Below are positions 2,308 to 17,000 of a stretch of 20,000 bases of DNA, in pieces. The position numbers and the translations under genes are program-made. Numbering within the stretch: position 1 is the stretch's first letter; each line of letters opens with the position of its first letter. This stretch comes from Vermamoeba vermiformis. Lineage: Eukaryota. The notes below the pieces were generated by a model. It ran no database searches. It was not told where the DNA came from and saw only the letters and a list, made by a program, of their open reading frames with translations. The stretch covers positions 359,144-379,143 of the forward strand of contig JBEWZL010000272.1 in the NCBI GenBank assembly GCA_045837725.1, given 5' to 3'.

Positions 2308-4292
2308 TTAGAAATTGTAAGTAATGTCGTAAAAAGTGCGCACAGCCACGAGATTTTCATCGATCCACTTGGCCAGCTCTGCATCGACTGGTTGATATTG
2401 CCACAACGTCAGCGAGTGCGTCGGATCTGCTAACAGCGCTTGAGCCACATTCCACGAGTCTAATAATAGAGTAATAATTAATACATTATTATTAGCAAAA
2501 TTCGGAAAAATGCTCAAAGGACGATGGTATTTTAAAATGAATTGAATTTTCCGACTCGGCCGATGTTTTCCATAGAAGGAAATGCTCTAACGCGAGATAT
2601 ACTATGTTTGGTAAACTCTATTTAAGGCGACACTTACTGCGCAATATTCTAACTTCGAGCGCGAAAGTGATGTGCGTGATTTCAGGCGAATATCTGTTGC
2701 TGTAGTAGAGCATGTCGTTGATGTTGGTCGCGCTGTATCTAATAATAGGAACAAAAAAATATAAGATTTATATATTATCAGCGATGTACAATAGAACTTC
2801 GAATTCAATTGAAAAATTAAGAAAAAATTTGATTGGACTCTAATAATATAGCTATTATTATTGTTATAGCTATTTTAGGCAATCGAATAATTAATGAATT
2901 AATTAAGCTAATAATTTCACGATCAATCCACGAAAGCATGAAAATTACAATGAAATTGATTCGAAGATAAAATCATTGAGCTTGATCCGCCTTATTATAC
3001 TAAACTCAAGTGGTATATGACAATATTAATGCACTTACTTGGCAGTCGTGGCGTTAGTGACACCACTCATGGCCCAGCCCAAGCTGAGTGTCGCACTCGG
3101 CAACAATTGGCGGCACGTGTAGATGAACCAGTTGGGGTCGAATAAGGAGCGACCACCGCCTAGTGTAGAGAACTCGGATTAATAGGCGTATCATATATAG
3201 TAATATTTGTTGTTAAGTTCCGTGAGGAGGTTTGGATCTCTATTACCAAATAAGGAGAAATTTAATTACTGTACGTAGTAAAATTAGGAACGTATAAAAA
3301 TGACTCGAATTTTCATAATAAGCGTCTATTGTAATTTCAACGTAATTAATTCGATTGATTTCCTTTTTTGGTAATTTAAATGTAGAGTGTCAAGAGGGCG
3401 ATCTGGCCCGTTCTTGCATTGTACGTACCAGGACCAGAGACAATATCAGCATTGAGCATAATAGGCATCTTATTCGTATTAATGGTTTTGAGCCAATTCA
3501 GCGCTGGTTCAACTGCCGCCATTTCTTTGAAATCCAACTTGAATCCTCTTTTCGGTCCAGATGTGGCGTTCAAAATCGACAAAACGAATTCATGTAGAGT
3601 TAAATCGCTAGTCTTATTAGGCGGATGAGCCATAATTAATTCGCCAGTTGAAGACAAGCTCACATCTGCCTCGATCATGTTCGTTACGTTGTTATTCAAA
3701 ACTTGTCTTAATGTCGCTCTATCATTGACCCCGTGGCTCCATTTAATTTGTGTGCCATCTTCTACGTCAAAATATTCATATAATACACTCATTTCAAGGC
3801 CTGGTCGTGCATCTGAAAATTGAGATCGTTAGATCAACTTTTCTATCGAGGTTATAGCATTATTTTGCACGTATTTAGTTTCAAAATAATATTTAAAGTA
3901 ACATATTACAAAAAACAACGTATGAAATGCAAGACAGTTTTAAATCTGAAAGGGCAAACCAAATTTCGGATCTGGTATTATTCTGCTTTAAATAACTTAT
4001 TGCACCAATAATAAATATACACTCGCTATGTTAATGTTATTTTGAGTGATACGATAAATATCCGGAATTTTTTGAATTATTTGAATAAATAGCCGTTGGA
4101 TCAACTTACTTCGATGCACGTATGAGAACAGGCCCGTGAATAATATAATAAATCCAATAAATAAAAATCCGACAGCGTGGAGTATTCTTTTTTCCCTCTG
4201 CGTGCTGTTGTCAAGATGAGATTAGCGGTTAGCCAAACAAACCAGATGTGAGCTTACTAAGGGTCTAAATTAGGGTTATATTCTTCTTGCAT
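2308..4292 (-). CDS. FAM151: FAM151/menorin-like PLC-like phosphodiesterase (DUF2181) with N-terminal TM anchor, 6 exons, ~295 aa
   Basis: Exons 4292-4258, 4204-4110, 3812-3429, 3159-3039, 2738-2638, 2459-2308; all GT-AG, 888 nt in frame. FAM151-type motifs WSHGVN, MIEADV, IMAHPP, KLDFK, LNADIVSGP, LSLGW and SLTLW are present. Exon 2 encodes a hydrophobic helix, ILHAVGFLFIGFIILFTGLFSYV. Confidence 0.88.
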
Positions 4293-6218: not shown

Positions 6219-9200
6219 ATGGCATCCGAAACAAGAGAAGAATTATTGAAAGAACTGCAACGTTTACGCGAAGAAAATAAACAACTCGAATGTAATACGA
6301 CGCAGCAAGCTAAAAATGCAAAAATTATTCTTGATGGCATGCAACAAATGGTTTTACTTTGGGATCTGGAAGGAAAAATTCTGACGGCAACTTCAACTTG
6401 TTTAAAGACAGCAAATATATCGATAGAAGAGTCTAAAAATAAGCCAGCATGGTAATATTAATATTATATTACATACTAGCGAATATTCGATTCAAAGTTC
6501 AAATAACTGGTCGATAATCTTATTAATTTATTTTAATTGCGTTAAATTGAATCAATTTGCTGGTTTAATACGCCCCATATTACATTATTATATAATATGA
6601 TGGCTAATATAAATTAGTTCGGTTCAATATCGAAAGTCAAGATTCGATCTGCTGAACTAACGACATTTTTTCAGGGATGTTGGAATGTTCGATGATAATG
6701 AGCGCAAAAAAGTGCAAACATATTATACGAACCTTATTCAAACGAAAAAACCTCAATTACAACGGACTGCTGCGTGGGATCACTTTTTTGGATCGAAACA
6801 AAAAATCATGATGGAGATGCTCTTAAATCCAGTATTCAAAGACGGTACGTATATATTAGTTAGTATTGTTTCAAAATATTAGGGCACTGTTTGAAATTAA
6901 TTTTGTTTGTGGTCGTATTTTTCGCAGATTCGATCTGTAACACTGACTTTTTGCTAACCTTCCCTTAAAATTCAGAAACGAGCGAAGAGCTCGAATATAT
7001 TATAGTCGAAGCGTGGAATATAACCCAAAAACATCTCGCGGAAACTGAATTGGCAAAGAAAATTGAAGAAATGCAAAGTTTGACAAGTCGCGTCCAAGAA
7101 ATCGATGCACTGCGCAGTAAATTTCTTGCTAATATTAGCCATGAGCTGAAGACCCCTTTGGCACTTATTTTAGCTGCGCTGGATAAAATGAAATCGATCC
7201 ACGAAGGCGAAAATGGTTCGGAAAATTCGTTGAGCACATCCAGCGAAGATGATGCCAAATCATTAGAAGTCATCAAACTCAATTCATTTACACTACTAAA
7301 GGTATGTATATGATATATGGACGATTAAGAGCTCTTCGTAAATTAGTTTGCCGTAATCTAATTGATGTAGAAAAATTCGTCACAGAGAATTCTCCTTTTA
7401 TGGCAAATCGCAATATATTTTCATCTTCGAATACATCTTAGTATTACCTATATATAATATAGTGCCGTTATCGTTTATTCTTTTCACTAACGAATACTTT
7501 TTTTCGGATGCATCCAGTACGTGAATGATCTGCTGGAAATTTCGAAGTTAGATACGGGCAAAATAGAAATGATATACAGCCAAGTCATATTCACCGATTT
7601 TATCAAAAGAATTGCTTCACATTTCGAATTACTAGCAAAAGAAAATCAAATCAATTACGAGATTCAAATGCCCGATCCATTCGCAGCGCACATCGATATT
7701 GATAAGATGGAGAAGACCTGCTTTAATTTAATATCAAATGCATTCAAGTTCACGCCACAAAATGGAAATATAAGAATAAGGTGCGTAATTACATCGTAAA
7801 ATTATTTTCAATTTGGTATACCGCAACAGTAGATCCGGTATACAATTAATTAGATCAACAAATAACGGTATTATTCCATATTAGTGAATTTCGGATTATT
7901 GTTTTTCAATTTTTTTCTTGATTTTCTTTGTTTGGCCGTTTATCGAAAAAACTCGAATCGAATCAAAAATATTTGCATTAATTTTATTACCAAATAAAGA
8001 GTTCGCTCCGAATCTCCGACGATAGAACAGTTGCAAGGATCAGTCGAGGTCTCCGTGTCAGATTCGGGGCCCGGATTAATTCCCGAAGTTCAAGATCGCG
8101 TGTTTGAACGGTTCAATCAAAACGTGCCACGTGCCGCTGGTGGCACTGGGCTGGGTCTATCAATAGCCCACGAATTTGTGCAATTACATGGCGGCAGCGT
8201 GACGATCGCTACATCCGAATTTGGTGGCGCGGAGTTTTTACTGAAATTTCCGATGTTTGCGACAGCAGGCACCAAGATCCACTACAACTTTGTAAATAAT
8301 TCAACGAGCAATACGAATAAGACTAAAGATATATATAAGAAGATAGAAGACATCAAAAAATCATCGCCCATCTCGGATGTAGCGGCGCAGACATTAGCCG
8401 ATCTGAAATTGAACAGAACCAACATGCCCGATGAAGCAGCATACGCAGAAGCGGAAAAACGGATAAATACAGTGACACGTGTCAAGGGCCCGTTCTCGAG
8501 TCAGCCCCTGCCAGAAGGCGCGGAAAAACCTTTAGTCCTGGTCGTGGAGGACAACATTGCCATCGGCGAGTACATTCAAAAGATCTTGCGCGAGGACTAC
8601 AGAGTGGTGTATGCCTATAACGGTGAAGATGGACTCATGAAGGCGAGGAAATATCGACCTGATTGCATTGGTACGTACTACTCAGATCTTGTTGTAGTTG
8701 GATCCGGATCCAAACCCTTTAAAACTCCCTTTTATTATCGACCTTATTGATCCAAATAATAATATGATCTTATGTTATAATCAGTATTATTTGATCGAAA
8801 GCGGATCCGGATGTGATTGACGATCGATGACTTTAACCGCGTTGAGAGTTTGACACTAATGATTGTTTTCCTATTATAGTAACGGACTTGATGATGCCGC
8901 TCATGACGGGAGATCGAATGATTGCAGAAATTCGTAATAGTCAAAATATGGATATTATTCCGATCATCATTTTGACGGCCAAAGAAGACGATAAAATGCG
9001 CATTGCATTGCTACAAAATGGCGCGCAAGATATCATTGAAAAACCATTCAACGCATCAGATCTGCTGGCACGTGTCAATAATTTAGTCCGCACGAAAGTC
9101 ATGTGGCAACAACTCGTCACGGCCATTGCGAAAAACAACGAGGGCATTGAAGAGCTCATGGACGATTTGTCTTATTTATTTAAAAATCCGCAATTGTTGG

Positions 9201-9313
9201 ATGAAGTCTTGACCAAAGAAAACGAAGATAGTAATAACAATAATAATAATAATAATAATAACTCTCAAGGTTCTTCGTCACGGCGTGGATCTCAAACTCG
9301 AAACAACAAATAA
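6219..9313 (+). CDS. Hybrid sensor histidine kinase (PAS/PAC - HisKA - HATPase_c - receiver), 6 exons, ~698 aa
   Basis: Exons 6219-6451, 6675-6844, 6976-7301, 7518-7780, 8000-8670, 8880-9313; 2097 nt in frame. H-box FLANISHELKTPL, N-box NLISNAFKFT, G1 DSGPG, F-box FERF and G2 GGTGLGLSI are present. The receiver has VLVVEDN, IVTDLMMP (phospho-Asp, rejoined by splicing), ILTA and KPF. The N-terminus is PAS/PAC-like (LWDLEGKIL...NPVFKD...VEAWNIT). No TM helix seen. Confidence 0.95.
8698..8713. repeat. Perfect 16-bp palindrome in intron 5 of the histidine kinase gene
   Basis: TTGGATCCGGATCCAA is its own reverse complement. A related GGATCCGGAT recurs about 100 nt downstream (about 8803). Confidence 0.6.
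9233..9262 (+). repeat. (AAT/AAC)10 microsatellite encoding poly-Asn
   Basis: Encodes the N10 run in the C-terminal tail of the histidine kinase. Confidence 0.9.
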
Positions 9314-9444: not shown

Positions 9445-11956
9445 CTATTTTCTAACAAACAGGCCTGGCGTACGTTGAACAACAACGACGGGAGCAAGCG
9501 CATTCGGTGCAACATTTTCTTTGTCCTGTGCATAGGCCTGCTTTGTTTGGCTCACCCCAGACGCAGGACTAAGAGCTTGACATTGAGGCTTGGCAATCAC
9601 CTTCACGGGCACTGTTCGTTGATTCAACGATGCCTCAATCTTCTGGCACTCTGTCAACGCGTCTGCAGCACTAATGCGTTGCGTCGAGTCCTCTTCAAGC
9701 ATTTGACGAACAAGCTCAACTGAGAAAAGATAGTAAGTACAATGGCTAAGCAATAGTACGCTCAATGAAGATACTCACTTAGCGATGTAGGAGCCAATGG
9801 CGAAGCGCGCAAAGATATTACCTCGGACAAAATATCAGCCCGATCTTGGTTGTTTGCAATCTTTCTGTTGTAGATCTATCGCCAAATGATTAGTTCAAGT
9901 AAGAATTTCAACGAACGCTGCAAGTTTACCAAGGAAGCAAGAACAAGGCCCATGGAGAACACATCCGACTTTTCACAGATCGGCTCTCGTCTGAGCATCT
10001 CGGGAGCCATGAACAGCTTGGTGCCGCAGTAGAACTCAGCTTTCTGGCCCGGAACAATCCGCCGTGCAGTCTACAACAAGTTAGCTTCATTTGGTATTGT
10101 AAGTTTTTAAGTATGCGTACCTCGAAGTCGATGAATCTCACTCGCTGACACTCAGTGTCATAGACAATGTTGTTCAATTTGACATCGCCGTGCAGGTACG
10201 ATGCCTCATTGAGACTAGACAGCGCCTAATTAATCATGATTAGCGCTTAGCTTTACTCTTCGAAGATAATGTATTACCGTTAATAATTGCTTGCTCAGTC
10301 GTACAGTCTCCTTTGCTGACGTCGGCTGTGGTACTTCATCGTACAACGGTGTGGCTATGGCAAAAAAATTGTCGCCCTTGTCCAACCACATCAGCGGAGC
10401 AACATACGGACCTATGGAATAATCGTGAGTCCAAAGATTATGAACGCTCTTCTAATACCTTTCAAAGCTTGTAACCTCCTTGCTTCCAACTTGATGCGAT
10501 CACGTGGGCCGGCTTTTCGCGCAAATAGTTGGTTATTGCACGATACCACCTGCACGTTATCTGCAATCTAAAAGGTGTCAGTTAACGATTGATTTGTTGA
10601 TTGTACTAGCTCACGTCTTCCACTGCAGAGCATTGCTTTGGATTGTATCCAGAATGTTTGTTCGGAGGTTGGTTCTCTTTGCTAGCAGACTTAATTGCTT
10701 TAACAGGGCTCGATTTCTCTGTGGAATTCGTAGACCTTTTGGAACGTGAAGAATTTGTGTTTGTACTTCGGGGCAACGCTTGCTCTTCTGCCATCGCTGC
10801 CTTCCTTCGCTTGACTATATCGAGCAGTTGGTTGATAATCTCCAACCTTCGTTTGTGGGATACCATCTTCACGCCAAGCAGTATGTGATGGATGTAAACA
10901 GCCAAACGGTTGAGGACGGTGACAATATAGGCCCGATCCAAATAAGTTGTTGCTCTGTGCTGGAACAGCAGCGTATCGAGCAACTGGCCGTCTGCATCGC
11001 GCTTCATGGCAAAGATACGCCATTCTCTGTCGTCCACAAAATAGCCAAAATTGAATTCTGGAGCGTTTTCCCAAACAAGTTCCATCATTTCTCTGGTGTA
11101 ACGCATCTCAGCGAGTAACTTTGATCTAGCAACGTTTGTTAATTAAGTGTGTTAATTGAACGAACGGTAAAAAACTTACACTCCGTCGCTGTACTCGCTA
11201 GCATCGTCTTCCTTCATGTGTTCGCCAATGAATATTGGTAGAGGAAGGACGGTAGTTCCTAAGTGCTCTTCAGCGATTGTGTGGAACAATTGTAGGAACT
11301 TCGCCGTTGTGTTTAGATCTGGGGTGTCGATTGCTGAGCACACAGATTGGGAGGCTTCGTTGTAGTAGAAGGGACCGGCGGCGCAGTCTGGCTTTAACAG
11401 AGGCATGTCGGGGCACATAAGGTTGCTAAGTAGATGATTGTTGCTACGTAGCAATCGTCAGTATTCATCTGAACTCAATGCTAACTCGATCGATCTTACC
11501 CAACGTGAAAGAGTAAGCTCTGCATGATTGATAATGCATTCCTACCAAGGCATGAACCCTGCATAGCCATTTTCATAACGACAACGGAGGAATGCGTTGG
11601 GTACCACAGATAATTCCAAGAACCATCAGGAGTGCCGAGATTAGTCGCTACTGCTGCAGAATTAACCTCGCCAAATTTAACGGCGATGTCTGACTGTTTG
11701 CTCTGGCCAGAGTTAGCTTCCGAATCCGGATTCGATCTGAACTTACCTGCTCAGTCAGCATCTCCTTATAAGCCTCCCATAGGTGAGGAAACGTCACACA
11801 TTCAGGCGTGAATATAACTTCTTTTTCATCGAAAGAAGGCAGGTCTTCGAAACCGTTTTTGAGCAGATTCGTTTCAAACTTGATGCCCTCTCTGGTCAGT
11901 ATGAAGCGCTCCATATCGGCGGACCAATTTTCAGGTGTTAGAGTTGACTTGCTCAT
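9445..11956 (-). CDS. Ser/Thr protein kinase with a putative N-terminal PD-(D/E)xK restriction-endonuclease-like domain (Crinkler-like REase-kinase), 10 exons, ~682 aa
   Basis: Exons 11956-11747, 11702-11500, 11443-11180, 11125-10615, 10567-10459, 10411-10278, 10225-10121, 10070-9930, 9875-9779, 9719-9445; 2049 nt in frame (the exon 2 acceptor may lie 9 nt further in). Kinase motifs: FARK, LEAR, LHGDVKLNN, FIDFE, CGTKLFMAPE, KSDVFSMG, RISAADAL. The N-terminal pattern is KPDC...IFIGEHMK...KLLAEM...FGYFVDDREWRIF. The kinase call is strong; the nuclease call is a pattern-based inference. Confidence 0.85.
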
Positions 11957-11959
11957 GGT

Positions 11960-12112
11960 TGTTTGAATAATCAAATGAACGAAATTCAAAAATAAAAATT
12001 GTAACGGGAGGGAAATTTTATCAATTTTATTTCAAAATTCGACCAATCAGAGTTATACGATTCCTCAAATGGCGTAACGGCTAGAAAACTGTTTCAAAAA
12101 AGGCGGGAAATT
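11960..12112 (-). promoter_or_regulatory. Cell-cycle-type promoter (E2F + CHR, Myb/MSA AACGG, CCAAT)
   Basis: Minus strand: TTCCCGC (12109-12103), 4 nt, TTTGAA (12098-12093). Further TTTGAA/TTCAAA at 12031, 11985 and 11962. GTAACGG at 12001 and 12074. CCAATCAG at 12043. Confidence 0.5.
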
Positions 12113-12294
12113 GGAGTTCGGTTCGCCAGCGTTAGGAACAAGAGCCAATTATCAATTGCGCCAGCTTTTCGCGCAACTGAAAGACAGGAGGAACGGAGTA
12201 AATAAGCTGCACAACCTGCATTATTGGTAAAGAGGGAAACTGTGGACGGTAGTTCGGTCTCGTGCTGTTAAAGATTAAAAAAGGTTGTTAAATG

Positions 12295-12295
12295 G

Positions 12296-12329
<34 letters not shown>

Positions 12330-12330
12330 A
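12295..12330. repeat. T15-A21 abutting homopolymers (self-complementary)
   Basis: T run at 12295-12309 directly followed by an A run at 12310-12330, in the intergenic region. Confidence 0.85.
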
Positions 12331-12646
12331 CTGCTCTGAACAGTTCCAGCAGCGGAGCTTCATCGACGGACATTGTCAGGGATAAATGGATGCACCTAAG
12401 GTAATATATGAGCCGTTGAGTCCGTTGCGAGTGCGGGGTTACAACAAAAGCTATGAATGAAATGAACTAATTTGAATGAAAAATTAAAAAACACTTGTTT
12501 TTTTTTTGTTGCCCAAACGAACATCACTTTGAAAAAATTAAAATTCTTTGATACAGTACGCGAAGATAATACCAATAAGCTGTCTTATACACTCGAATTC
12601 ATTATTTATTACGATGGATCAAAGCGTAATTTATTCCAAAGCTCGC

Positions 12647-13873
12647 TTAGAATTTAATCATGTTGTTACGACCATCGACGCACATGTAAGATGTAGCAGC
12701 GTTCTGGCACTCATTCGTGGTAATCGAATCATACACCTCGCAGTTCTGGCAGAACGGATTGTACTTGCAATCGAGGAACTGGACCTCGTCCTCATCGCAA
12801 TCAACAGCGTAGCGGATAAGGTCGCCGTAGCAAACATCAGTAGCAATGTAAGTGACTGACGTAGGACTATGAATTAAATTTTTAGTCAGATCCGAATCTC
12901 GTCGTCCACATCCAAAAAAACTTACTCGAAGTTGCAATTGTTATCATTGTCTTCAAAACGAACAATTTGTACCCACTTCTTCTTGTCAATTCTAAGTTGC
13001 TTGCCACAAGTTCTGTAGATGGTGTAGTCCGGTGTTTTGATGCACTGTTCCTCGCAGCCCGTAGCGTACATTTGGTCGATCGTGTACGGCAAGCTGTCAT
13101 TGCACAAGTGATAGTAGTTGTAGTAGTCGATCTGAAGGACGGGCTCTGATGCAACAGGGCTAGTTGGGTCCACTGGGGGTGAAGGGAAGTTGCAGAACCA
13201 TTCACCAACAATAGTGAGATCCGCATCCGTCGGGCTAATGACGGTAGTATTTTCAGCTTGAATAATGCCTTCTGGCACTATATATGTAATTAATATATAT
13301 ATACACCTCGTTTTATAACTTACAAAACTGGTTGCAGATCAGCTTTAAGGTCGTTCTTCGGGTCGATCCGCCGGAACAGCCAGTACAATTAGCACCGTCA
13401 TTGTAGGTAATGAGAATACCAAGACCATTATCTAAATATTATTAGTATAATATTATACAATTTATTAGCCATACCTAACGGCTCAACCACAGTTAAGGGA
13501 TCATAAGCTCCGAAGCAGGTTGCACCGTGATCCGGCGCAGAACCGCAGGCGCTGCAAGAATCGACGCCGCAATATTCATCAAGAGCCCCACATATAGTCA
13601 CGTTGACTACGTAGTCGCTGTACTCGTTGAAGACTTGGATCTTCCTACAACGAAAATCAGAAAAATTTATTTTTCTTACCCGCAGAGGCGTTTTAACAAG
13701 AATAATATTGTCAAAAATAGTAAAATGCAATAACAATATTCTTACTGTCCCATGAGCCAGCTGATATCGTAAGCTGTTCCATCCGAAGCAACCACAATAG
13801 TCTGGTCGCAAAAAGCATGAGACAACGCTACGAAGCAGCCAAATACCAAAAAGAAGCTTAAATATGCCTTCAT
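12647..13873 (-). CDS. Secreted Cys-rich protein with an N-terminal mannose-6-phosphate receptor homology (MRH)-like domain, 5 exons, ~325 aa
   Basis: Exons 13873-13746, 13644-13475, 13431-13324, 13277-12926, 12866-12647; 978 nt in frame. Signal peptide MKAYLSFFLVFGCFVALSHA. MRH-like motifs YDISWL, VTICGAL...C, GILITYNDGANC and RRTTLKLIC. A Pro-rich linker leads to a Cys-rich C-terminal region. No TM segment. Confidence 0.8.
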
Positions 13874-14025
13874 TGTGCTGATATACACTATTTAAGACTT
13901 TCTGGGCTGCTACAAATTTTGCTAGCAACAAAAATCTGATCGCGGTCAGAAAAAGTCAACGGACAATTAAGGCGCAAAAAAATCAGAATTCCAAAGTACA
14001 TATTGTCGTATATAATATTACCACT
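13874..14025. promoter_or_regulatory. Compact bidirectional promoter region
   Basis: Only 152 nt separate the divergent ATGs of the MRH-like gene (13873, minus) and the F-box gene (14026, plus). Confidence 0.55.
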
Positions 14026-17000
14026 ATGGACACAGAAAGCTTTCCATTTTTCTCGTTGCCAAATGAGCTCATCCACCAGTTGATGCAGTTCTTCGAGCCG
14101 TTGTCGTTGTGTCGCTTATCACAATGCAGTCACGAGCTAAAAGAACTTGCAAATGCTGATCATCTTTGGCAGCGATTAATTCCTGTCTATAAGGGCAAGA
14201 TTATTGCGGTTAGCCAGGATGTAACAGGTATCCATCATTACCGCTCAATAATTAATTTATTAATGCTTATTATTTTCATTAGTATTATTTTCATTATTTT
14301 GCTTGCTAAATGAATAATTTAATTTTGTGGCGTAACTTTTCAAAATAAAATTTAGATGTGACGTCGTCAATTTACTTACCCTTTATTAATTTTAGGCTGG
14401 AAAAATATATTCAAGGACGCCCAAGTGCACGAAATCATCGAGGATGCGTTGGAAACAACATTTAATCCCGAAGAGATTCTTGAAGGCAAGCCGATGCGCG
14501 TTGGCATCAAGCGCGTCATTTTGAGTCCTGGCGTGTATAACGTCGAGCTCAAATATACGGGCTACTCTCCTGTGATACTCGAGGGCTTATATGACAATCC
14601 TTGGAGCGAAAAGGAAGAGAATGAAAAAACATTTTTGACGCAGGTAAAAGACAAAGAAAACCCGCTGTTTGTGACTTATGGAGACTCGACTTTAAGAGTA
14701 AGTAATATATAAATATGCCTAGTATATTTAATTTTTGTGCTTTAATTGTTGATTTCTGGATTTGCTCATGCTCACAAGTTTTTGTTCAAAACTTCCGCAA
14801 TTTATTCAGCGAAACGAATTATCTAATGTAATCTAATTATAGAACTTGGTAATGAAAACTGAACGCGGTAATTTGAGCGTTGCAGTATTAGGCATGGACT
14901 GCAACATTACCGTCGAGAACTGCGAGATCGAGGCCAAGAGTTCATACGGCGTTGGTTCATTGTAAGCTATTTCTCATTAATATACCCTACTTGTAATACG
15001 TACTAATGTTTTATATCTACTCGCAGTGACTCCCGTGGCAAGACACTGACCATCAGCAAGTGTCACGTGTACAACTGCTTGCACGCCATTGCCGCGAACG
15101 GAGCGGGTCTGAAAGTGATTGACACGCGTAAGTACTGCTCGATAATAGGAGGGTCTCTCGAGCTTGAGAACATTACGTAGGCCGTCGGTATTGCGTACAG
15201 TGGCGAGCTATATTTAGACTGCTTGGACTGTCATTGCCTTTTTTGGAAGCATTGATGGTTGGAGCGTGCTGATACTGCGCATCATGCCACGTGCTTGAAA
15301 TTTCCCTTCACTCGTGTCACCTGAGCTGCAGTTGACACGTGTCATACGGAGGTTCGTCCGACGTGTCAGTGACTTATATTTTCTATTCATAGTGGTCCAC
15401 AACTGCGCGGGGGCGTTAGAAATCAAAGACCAGTTGGAGCCAGTGTCCATCGTGAACAGCGTCTTTCACCACATTTCCACCGAAAAAGTCGATTCCCGTG
15501 CCATCGCCATCGCGAACAGCAAGAACATTGAGTTCAAAAACTGTCAGATCTACGCGTGTCAAGGCACAGCGTTTTGGATCATGCAGACTGTGATCACAAT
15601 CGAGGACTGTACTATCACCGACAACAAGCTCGGCGTGATGGTCTTCGAGAAGGGCAATTTGACCTTTAAAAACAACAAAATTTCGAAGAATTTGAACGGC
15701 ATGGTCCTCAGACCGTTGTACACGCTCACTGCTTTTGAAAACAACGAGTTCATGGATAATCAAGAAGTCGGTAAGTCTCACTTGTTTAACGTCCTTACTG
15801 CCACCAAAGCACTTTCCTTTTAAGGAAACACGTAGCTTATTAATTGTTTGTCGGTCTCGGAAAATTAGAATCTCGAACAATTTGATTTTTTTTTGGCCAA
15901 CCAATTCTTTTTCGCTCAAAGGACCTGCAACTATTTTAATTACTATTTCTGTTAAATTTGCCATTCACGGATATGTTAAAAACCTTACTAATATGGAAAT
16001 TGTTTTCATTCAGGTCTGAGTGTGTTGCGCTACACGACGGACAGTCCATTGACCGAGGACTGGGTGAAGAGTCAAAACAAATTCGATCGCAACACGACGA
16101 ACATCACAATCTCCACGCGTGAAGGCGTTGACATGAGTGATGACGTCGAGACTGACATTGGCGTCGAGGCTAATGACGCTGAGATCCAAAAACAAGTTGG
16201 TAAGAAACACTATAATAACGTCGAATATAATTATAGTATTCGTATTATCAATCAACAAAATTTGAGATCCCATTTTTTCACTGAACGATCGATTCACTGA
16301 AATTCCTTGCTAACTCTCGATAATATTTGCAGCCGAGAAAATGAACAAGGCTGTCAAGGACAAATTGTGCACTTTTACGGCCACGCACTGCAACTTTGTC
16401 GAGCAAGACTGGTACGTAACTTAAGAATATAGTATAAATACGTATAATAAGCTTATTAATATTAAATTACGCCGTTAATTTTTGCTTGCACGAGCGGGGC
16501 TTTTATCTTTGCAAAAATTTTGAGCAGTGCGGCAACGCGGTTCAGTGAAAAGGTCCTATCGGAATGAAAGTCCACGTGCAGATGGTGCCAAATCAAGCGT
16601 AGATTTCATTGCGTGTGATGTGTTGGACCAATCACATCGCTCCAATCGCGAATCACGCACCAATTACGGCAACGCGTTGTTCATTTCTTTTATTTTTGTA
16701 TTTTTTCCTTCTCTTCCTGTTTTTTGTTTGTTTATCTATTTATCAATAATTACCTATTTACTAATAATACTGTGCCTTAGGTACGAATGTTTTACTTGCG
16801 GCCTGGCAGGTGACGCTGGATGTTGCGCTTCGTGCGTGGATGTGTGCCACAAAGATCACGCGGTGTCGCAGCAACCGAAGCACACATTGTTCTATTGGTA
16901 CGTGATTGATTAATACGATGCACTAATAATTATGTAATTATATCAAATTTTACTTGAAATAACTCTGGTGTACCACATCCGGATTTCAAAACTTTACCTC

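Follow-up and report, generated by a model that had tools for sequence, protein, structure and literature searches.

We have identified, in Vermamoeba vermiformis, a gene for a eukaryotic-type Ser/Thr protein kinase whose catalytic domain is flanked by two putative KEN-box degrons. The gene lies in a 20,000-nucleotide stretch of contig JBEWZL010000272.1 (assembly GCA_045837725.1, positions 359,144 to 379,143 of the forward strand), hereafter the window. The kinase belongs to an undescribed, lineage-restricted protein family and is probably division-timed, i.e. coupled to the cell cycle. The explanation that we tentatively favor, with a probability of roughly 0.45, is that the two KEN boxes dock on co-activators of the APC/C (anaphase-promoting complex/cyclosome) and that the promoter is at least E2F-like. 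[quoted passage not shown]

Under this explanation, two disordered segments on either side of the catalytic domain would each offer a consensus KEN box to the WD40 propeller of an APC/C co-activator (Cdh1 or Cdc20). Docking would lead to ubiquitination of the kinase and to its removal from late mitosis through G1, and an SPVK site of the cyclin-dependent kinase (CDK) type beside the first KEN box (KEN1) may gate recognition by the co-activator. The compact promoter would probably act through its E2F-type sites, and CHR, Myb and CCAAT elements may contribute; transcription of this kind would confine synthesis to proliferating cells. Binding to the APC/C, degradation and periodic transcription are features that we infer, as is whatever role the N-terminal region may have.

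Gene structure and kinase domain

Coordinates of the gene and of all motifs discussed below are collected in Table 1. RNA evidence confirms part of the gene model. Introns 10071-10120 and 10226-10277 are spliced out in a contig from public RNA run X1 that agrees exactly with the window on either side, from which we conclude that the gene is transcribed and that both introns exist. The remaining seven introns were placed from the reading frame. The introns are short and carry CTNAY-type branch sites, a style that would suit a fungus or another microbial eukaryote; either 11702 or 11693 may serve as the acceptor of intron 1. The end of exon 4, which reads "..VS" when its GT donor is translated through, is seen again in homologues. 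Three other raw RNA-seq runs yielded 0-4 partial reads on the 4-kb stretch, too few to bear on transcription. Rfam and tRNA scans of the 20-kb window gave no matches.

From the N to the C terminus, the protein consists of a region of ~340 aa, a disordered linker, the Ser/Thr kinase domain and a low-complexity tail. The gene product is a eukaryotic-type Ser/Thr kinase. Its translation carries the catalytic loop HGDVKLNN, which follows the D-x-K-x-x-N pattern, the Mg-binding D in DFE (replacing DFG), APE and SDVFSMG; a Gly-rich loop was not evident on inspection of the translated kinase domain. Pfam recognizes the kinase part only, with Pkinase matching exon 8 (E 3.9e-9; 36.7 bits against a cut-off of 31.7) and exon 7 (E 0.006), and OspG_kinase matching exon 7 (E 6.4e-5).

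KEN boxes and their conservation

A previous sequence-only reading of this stretch, made from the letters and without database searches, had drawn attention to KENQPPN at 10680-10660 and KENVAPN at 9522-9502. Both are present there in the minus-strand translation, and we refer to them as KEN1 and KEN2. A consensus of 46 validated KEN boxes, as given in the portions of PMC3690534 drawn upon in this work, has D or N at P-1 and P at P+3, less often at P+2. KEN1 has P at +2 and +3 with S at -1, and KEN2 has D at -1 with P at +3; S-KENQPP and D-KENVAP both conform to the extended KEN degron consensus. When the whole protein was shuffled 50,000 times, at least two KEN occurred in 0.9%, at least one KEN..P in 0.8% and at least one KEN..PN in 0.04%, and two KEN..P in none (0/50,000). 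The flanks of KEN1 and KEN2 are unrelated, so that the pair is not an internal duplication. In the AlphaFold model of exon 4, KEN1 falls in a stretch with a predicted local distance difference test score (pLDDT) below 50, adjoining a domain at ~90. Disorder around KEN2 was judged from composition alone.

Substrates and regulators that the APC/C recognizes through KEN boxes include Cdc20, securin, Cdc6 and mitotic kinases of the Aurora and Nek2 type. The V. vermiformis kinase resembles them in having [S/D]-KEN-x-x-P (the consensus being that of PMC3690534) within disordered segments and next to a CDK site, and differs in lacking any sequence relation to them, in lacking a destruction box (D-box), and in that the motif is absent from half of the informative homologue clusters.

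These clusters, nine in all, came from a HMMER search with exon 4 over 1.84 billion representative proteins. They are short open reading frame (ORF) fragments on eukaryotic-looking contigs from NCBI, JGI, ENA and Logan; P0010, P0004 and P0019 are encoded on JGI contigs of 291-472 kb. The homologues share the exon end, because their "..VS" likewise reads through a GT donor. KENxxP is found in four clusters, namely as KENQPPN in P0001 (90% identity to the window), KENNNPQ and KENTNPQ in P0002 and P0010 (38-40%), KENKSPN in P0004 and P0016 (30-32%) and KENRNPN in P0008 (33-34%). It is absent from four others, and the ninth, P0003 (36-37%), is uninformative, its ORF ending 20 residues into the linker and thus too early to tell. 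In all four KEN-bearing clusters the motif sits 21-26 residues ahead of the conserved exon end, and composition-preserving shuffles of each linker gave KEN..P in 0.1-0.4%. The consensus of the exon-4 alignment reads KENxxPN inside an otherwise unalignable linker. The SPVK site, the sole [ST]P.[KR] in the protein, has the counterpart SPFK in P0002 and SAFK in P0001, where the site is lost.

A tree built from the folded part places the rows with KEN in two clades that are separate and joined by a path of at least 1.7 substitutions per site, with weak support for the deep branches, and the distribution of the motif calls for at least three gains or losses. Conservation of KEN1 is partial but deep, which fits an old motif with repeated loss. 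Conservation among homologues, which the sequence-only reading had set as a condition on its proposal, is for KEN1 seen in four of nine clusters and two clades and missing in four clusters.

Further searches added nothing to the family. No homologue of exon 4 was found among longer proteins, and a search with alignment A1 at near lengths returned six proteins, each of them either known before or encoded by the window itself. A degenerate DNA pattern of the block W..P.F[NT]FG.[FY].....W....M matched once in the window, nowhere in viral contigs, and otherwise only at unrelated loci in metagenome contigs (three, L001-L003) and genome contigs (one, L004). A search for homologue loci with alignment A2 gave 52 pattern matches in genome contigs, none of which was confirmed. 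Loci L001-L004, on bacterial or metagenomic contigs, have in common a frame of 39 codons (SSIW..MKRS) that is nearly the same in all four. This frame bears no relation to the kinase family, and it may be a conserved bacterial gene read in the opposite frame.

Promoter of the kinase gene

Promoter positions were counted from the ATG at 11956; the RNA data yielded no read starts. The motifs that the sequence-only reading had listed upstream of it, i.e. TTCCCGC-N4-TTTGAA, three more TTTGAA, two GTAACGG and a CCAAT, are all present at the sites given. In animal promoters of this kind, a spacer of exactly 4 nt separates the cell cycle-dependent element (CDE) from the CHR downstream of it. The canonical form of the CHR is TTTGAA, and the element works in inverse orientation too, according to the sections of PMC4176359 on which we rely. 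The same spacing is seen in TTCCCGC-CTTT-TTTGAA at 12109-12093. We found a single TTSSCGC-N4-TTYGAA in the 20 kb, where 0.01 would be expected, and one of 200 shuffles contained it. Four TTTGAA within 156 nt is the window maximum, reached by 0.3% of sliding windows. Two of the five GTAACGG and two of the four TTTSSCGC of the window lie in this promoter, which is also the only region of the 20 kb to combine at least three CHRs, at least two YAACGG, a CCAAT and an E2F site.

Animal CHR promoters are not known to need Myb sites, and the pair of YAACGG cores is more like the mitosis-specific activator elements of plants. In other respects the likeness to animal CDE/CHR-E2F promoters bound by DREAM or MMB extends to a GC-rich E2F/CDE-like site exactly 4 nt upstream of TTTGAA, direct and inverse CHRs and CCAAT (as described in the consulted parts of PMC4176359), the two YAACGG cores being a difference. 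The lineage matters for this comparison. As far as the relevant passages of PMC7225089 go, LIN9 homologues have been reported in animals, plants, Amoebozoa and alveolates, with none from fungi, whereas reports of LIN52 are confined to Metazoa and Amoebozoa.

The DREAM-like promoter grammar that had been proposed for this protist amounts to a letter-for-letter match, uncommon in the window as a whole and made up of single words that are common there. A fuller version of the cell-cycle explanation would have a family of kinases with a nuclease-like domain gated twice, through CCAAT-CDE/E2F-N4-CHR plus Myb-core transcription and through APC/C clearance via the two KENs. It would place DREAM/MuvB-type grammar outside animals and plants, and would allow a potentially toxic activity, like that of the SPOK proteins considered below, to be limited to a narrow division window. 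We consider this fuller version very unlikely.

Two sequence features were also noted near the promoter. A weak 24-nt direct repeat (12001-12024 and 12074-12097; 71% identity, 73-nt spacing) has GTAACGG and, ~17 nt away, TTGA[AT]A in each copy, and may be a duplicated promoter module or due to chance. Some 340 nt upstream of the ATG, an intergenic T-run followed by an A-run (12296-12333; at least 14 nt each, perfect and self-complementary) separates two co-oriented genes and may be nucleosome-excluding or terminator-like.

N-terminal region

The N-terminal region had been labeled "REase" (restriction endonuclease), a label that our analyses leave unverified. No Pfam family was found for exons 1-4 or for 14 aligned exon-4 sequences. 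AlphaFold predictions used single-exon translations, and the modeled part of the protein is exon 4, which with alignment A1 was predicted to form a helix, three strands and two helices (residues 1-110, pLDDT ~90). Foldseek found no match in the PDB at E<=0.001 for this sub-domain. An SH2-like fold for it was considered and rejected, the best Z score of a VIA-wide search (5.0-5.5) being under the stated noise level of the tool. Likewise, weak ESM Atlas neighbors with few shared features that suggested a PARP-like relation of exon 2 were disregarded.

As for the canonical PD-(D/E)XK motif, the region contains four PD dipeptides (aa 95, 149, 156 and 179), none of which is followed by [DE].K. The sole [DE].K in the N-terminal region is DEK at aa 43, which precedes all four PD. 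Candidates for the second half of the motif are VMK and EHMK, the best being TPD...VVVMK. The only positive hint for the label comes from language-model neighbors in the ESM Atlas, where the nearest clusters consist of fungal PDDEXK_12 proteins (score 0.91, 175 shared features). PDDEXK_12 is carried by 29% of the members of the top cluster and by 94% of those of the second.

These neighbors bear on the suggestion, made together with the label, that the gene might be a selfish driver or toxin. The SPOK proteins of Podospora and other Ascomycota combine a killer domain of the PD-(D/E)XK kind with a protective kinase of the eukaryotic-like kinase (ELK) type and, upstream of that kinase, a cluster of cysteines (C-x3-C-x13-C-x5-H-x7-H), according to the excerpts of PMC6660238 used here. 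The V. vermiformis gene could then be a toxin-antidote gene with a nuclease-like killer domain and a protective kinase, expressed around division or meiosis. By description, to which our comparison is confined, the protein shares with SPOK3 a length of ~700 aa and the order of N-terminal folded region (the nuclease in SPOK), unstructured linker and C-terminal kinase (PMC6660238, same excerpts); the family also consists of several deeply diverged copies, mostly in environmental assemblies, and the fungal PDDEXK_12 clusters are its nearest language-model neighbors. However, a nuclease has no support from hidden Markov models for exons 1-4 or from fold comparison of the modeled exon 4, the canonical motif is missing, with PD..VMK as the best candidate, and the SPOK cysteine cluster is absent from the translation as judged by eye. 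The kinase is of the eukaryotic protein kinase type, with DxKxxN, APE and a Pkinase match, as opposed to the ELK-like kinase that the same excerpts of PMC6660238 describe for SPOK, and the gene stands single among ordinary genes. The idea echoes SPOK, but the SPOK hallmarks that we checked are not found, and we hold it to be highly improbable.

Neighboring genes and feature coordinates

The kinase gene has eukaryotic neighbors, with a Menorin domain, a hybrid histidine kinase and an F-box/beta-helix/UBR-box gene among them. A hybrid histidine kinase gene (6969-9310, plus strand; HisKA, HATPase_c and Response_reg) converges on the kinase gene, and the two stop codons are ~135 nt apart, so that the 3' untranslated regions probably overlap. 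Upstream of the kinase gene, an unannotated minus-strand gene (~12650-13955) gives no Pfam match in any long frame and has an intron at 12867-12925 that is confirmed by a spliced X1 contig. It diverges from a multi-exon plus-strand gene (13882-16910) that encodes an F-box (E 8.9e-9), right-handed beta-helix repeats (E 1.6e-17) and a weak UBR-box zinc finger (E 4.8e-4), an order of parts that we take to recall FBXO11. A Menorin domain exon (E 1.3e-30) lies at 3379-3828 on the minus strand.

Table 1. Positions in the window of the kinase gene, the segments of its product and the motifs of its promoter.
Feature	Position	Strand	Description
Ser/Thr kinase gene	9445..11956	-	Ten exons, ~682 aa; longest open reading via GT..AG introns of 44-59 nt
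Exons 1-5	11956-11747, 11702 (or 11693)-11500, 11443-11180, 11125-10615, 10567-10459	-	Gene model
Exons 6-10	10411-10278, 10225-10121, 10070-9930, 9875-9779, 9719-9445 (including stop)	-	Gene model
N-terminal globular region, ~aa 1-340	10795..11956	-	"REase" of the sequence-only reading; exon-4 AlphaFold model, no family match
Disordered linker 1, S/T/K/N-rich	10615..10794	-	pLDDT <50 for exon-4 residues 120-170; homologue linkers unalignable save around KEN
SPVK, full CDK-consensus site (S/T-P-x-K/R)	10699..10710	-	10 aa upstream of KEN1
KEN1, S-KENQPPN, aa 375-381	10660..10680	-	AAA GAG AAC CAA CCT CCG AAC at 10680-10660
Eukaryotic-type Ser/Thr protein kinase domain	9640..10567	-	Exons 5-10; Pfam and motifs in the translation
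C-terminal low-complexity tail	9448..9639	-	Translation; disorder judged from composition alone
KEN2, D-KENVAPN, aa 658-664	9502..9522	-	AAA GAA AAT GTT GCA CCG AAT at 9522-9502
E2F/CDE-like site TTTCCCGC	12110-12103	- (gene strand)	Followed by CTTT, then TTTGAA at 12098-12093
Composite CCAAT-TTCCCGCC-TTTT-TTGAA	12093..12114	-	CCAAT, E2F/CDE-like, 4 nt, CHR; -137 to -158 from ATG
CCAAT	12114-12110; 12043-12047	gene strand; inverse	First copy abuts the E2F site
Second full E2F 8-mer TTTCGCGC	12167..12174	+	~215 nt upstream of ATG
Further TTTGAA (three)	12036-12031, 11990-11985; 11962-11967	gene strand; inverse	
GTAACGG (Myb core YAACGG)	12074..12080, 12001..12007	+	Inverse to gene

Discussion

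The sequence-only reading had proposed that the kinase is wired into the cell cycle at the level of both promoter and protein. This is partly supported. The protein side gains support from the match of both motifs to the KEN consensus, the predicted disorder around KEN1 and the recurrence of KENxxP in four of nine clusters; the promoter grammar stands as a literal match only.

A number of observations weigh against the cell-cycle explanation. Neither a D-box (RxxLxxxx[NDE]) nor an ABBA motif was found in the protein, and the ORFs of P0005, P0006/P0017, P0007 and cluster 9 (via P0020), at ~27-33% identity, cover the linker without a KEN. A close expressed variant from X1 seems to delete KEN1: a single contig (depth 2.7) is 97.6% identical over 10705-10992 (7/288 bases differ), and its next 30 letters fit the window from 10653 onward (23/30, by eye). 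This would amount to an in-frame deletion of 51 nt (10654-10704; 17 codons, VKAIKSASKENQPPNKH), so that KEN1 may be dispensable. For KEN2, the last exon has only one further database copy, P0022, whose 100% identity leaves it uninformative on conservation. The RNA evidence for the gene comprises a few low-depth spliced contigs, all from run X1. On the promoter side, all statistics are post hoc with the 20-kb window as their only background, and the component words are frequent in it or at expectation: TTTGAA occurs 51 times against 31.7 expected and AACGG/CCGTT 51 times in 20 kb (~1 per 390 nt in either case), and TTSSCGC 8 times against 9.3.

The word frequencies would suit an explanation in which the promoter motifs are chance occurrences in a T/A-rich compact promoter and KENxxPN is a linear motif or linker remnant for some other partner, for example in import or in the docking of a kinase substrate or regulator. 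It draws further support from the half of the informative clusters in which KEN is absent and from the X1 variant that seems to delete KEN1. The block N-K-x-S-G-[YTF] beside the KEN is also kept, and persists in the KEN-less P0006 and P0007, so that selection may act on a larger or different element. However, the exact KEN..P form with D/N at -1 matches a consensus that was defined beforehand, the motif is present two times in this protein and recurs across two deep clades, and the E2F-N4-CHR composite, with its 0.01 expected occurrences per window, falls in the promoter of the very same gene. We therefore regard chance and another partner as possible, on the unlikely side.

The absence of a D-box, which efficient substrates usually pair with KEN, can also be accommodated if the KEN boxes serve as co-activator docking sites or pseudosubstrates, as in Mad3/BubR1 or Acm1, and bring the kinase to the APC/C or inhibit the APC/C. 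Bub1 and BubR1 have a C-terminal kinase with an HGD-type catalytic loop. Two KEN boxes flanking a folded domain would suit such a role, two KEN boxes being the likeness to Mad3/BubR1 and Bub1. Acm1 and Mad3 inhibit via their KEN boxes, and KEN-K-S-P in P0004 shows the overlap between KEN-x-S-P and a CDK site known from Acm1 (both in the portions of PMC3690534 cited above). Nevertheless, the protein has no sequence relation to the Mad3/BUB1 tetratricopeptide repeat (TPR) domain or to Acm1, exons 1-4 give no Mad3_BUB1_I/TPR Pfam match, and its KENs flank the kinase domain and not an N-terminal domain. The data do not separate docking from degradation. We think it rather unlikely that the KEN boxes act in this way, and retain as the preferred explanation a kinase that docks on APC/C co-activators through its two KEN boxes and is expressed from an E2F-like promoter.

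Conclusions

Should the KEN boxes prove functional, the orphan family of kinases described here would be a lineage-specific client of the APC/C, and cell-cycle control in a microbial eukaryote that has been little studied would become more accessible. The family would likewise provide a clean example of a degron that survives in an otherwise unalignable linker. If the CCAAT-E2F-N4-CHR arrangement is functional, the CDE/CHR logic of animals would extend to another eukaryotic lineage, which would bear on the age of MuvB/DREAM-type regulation.

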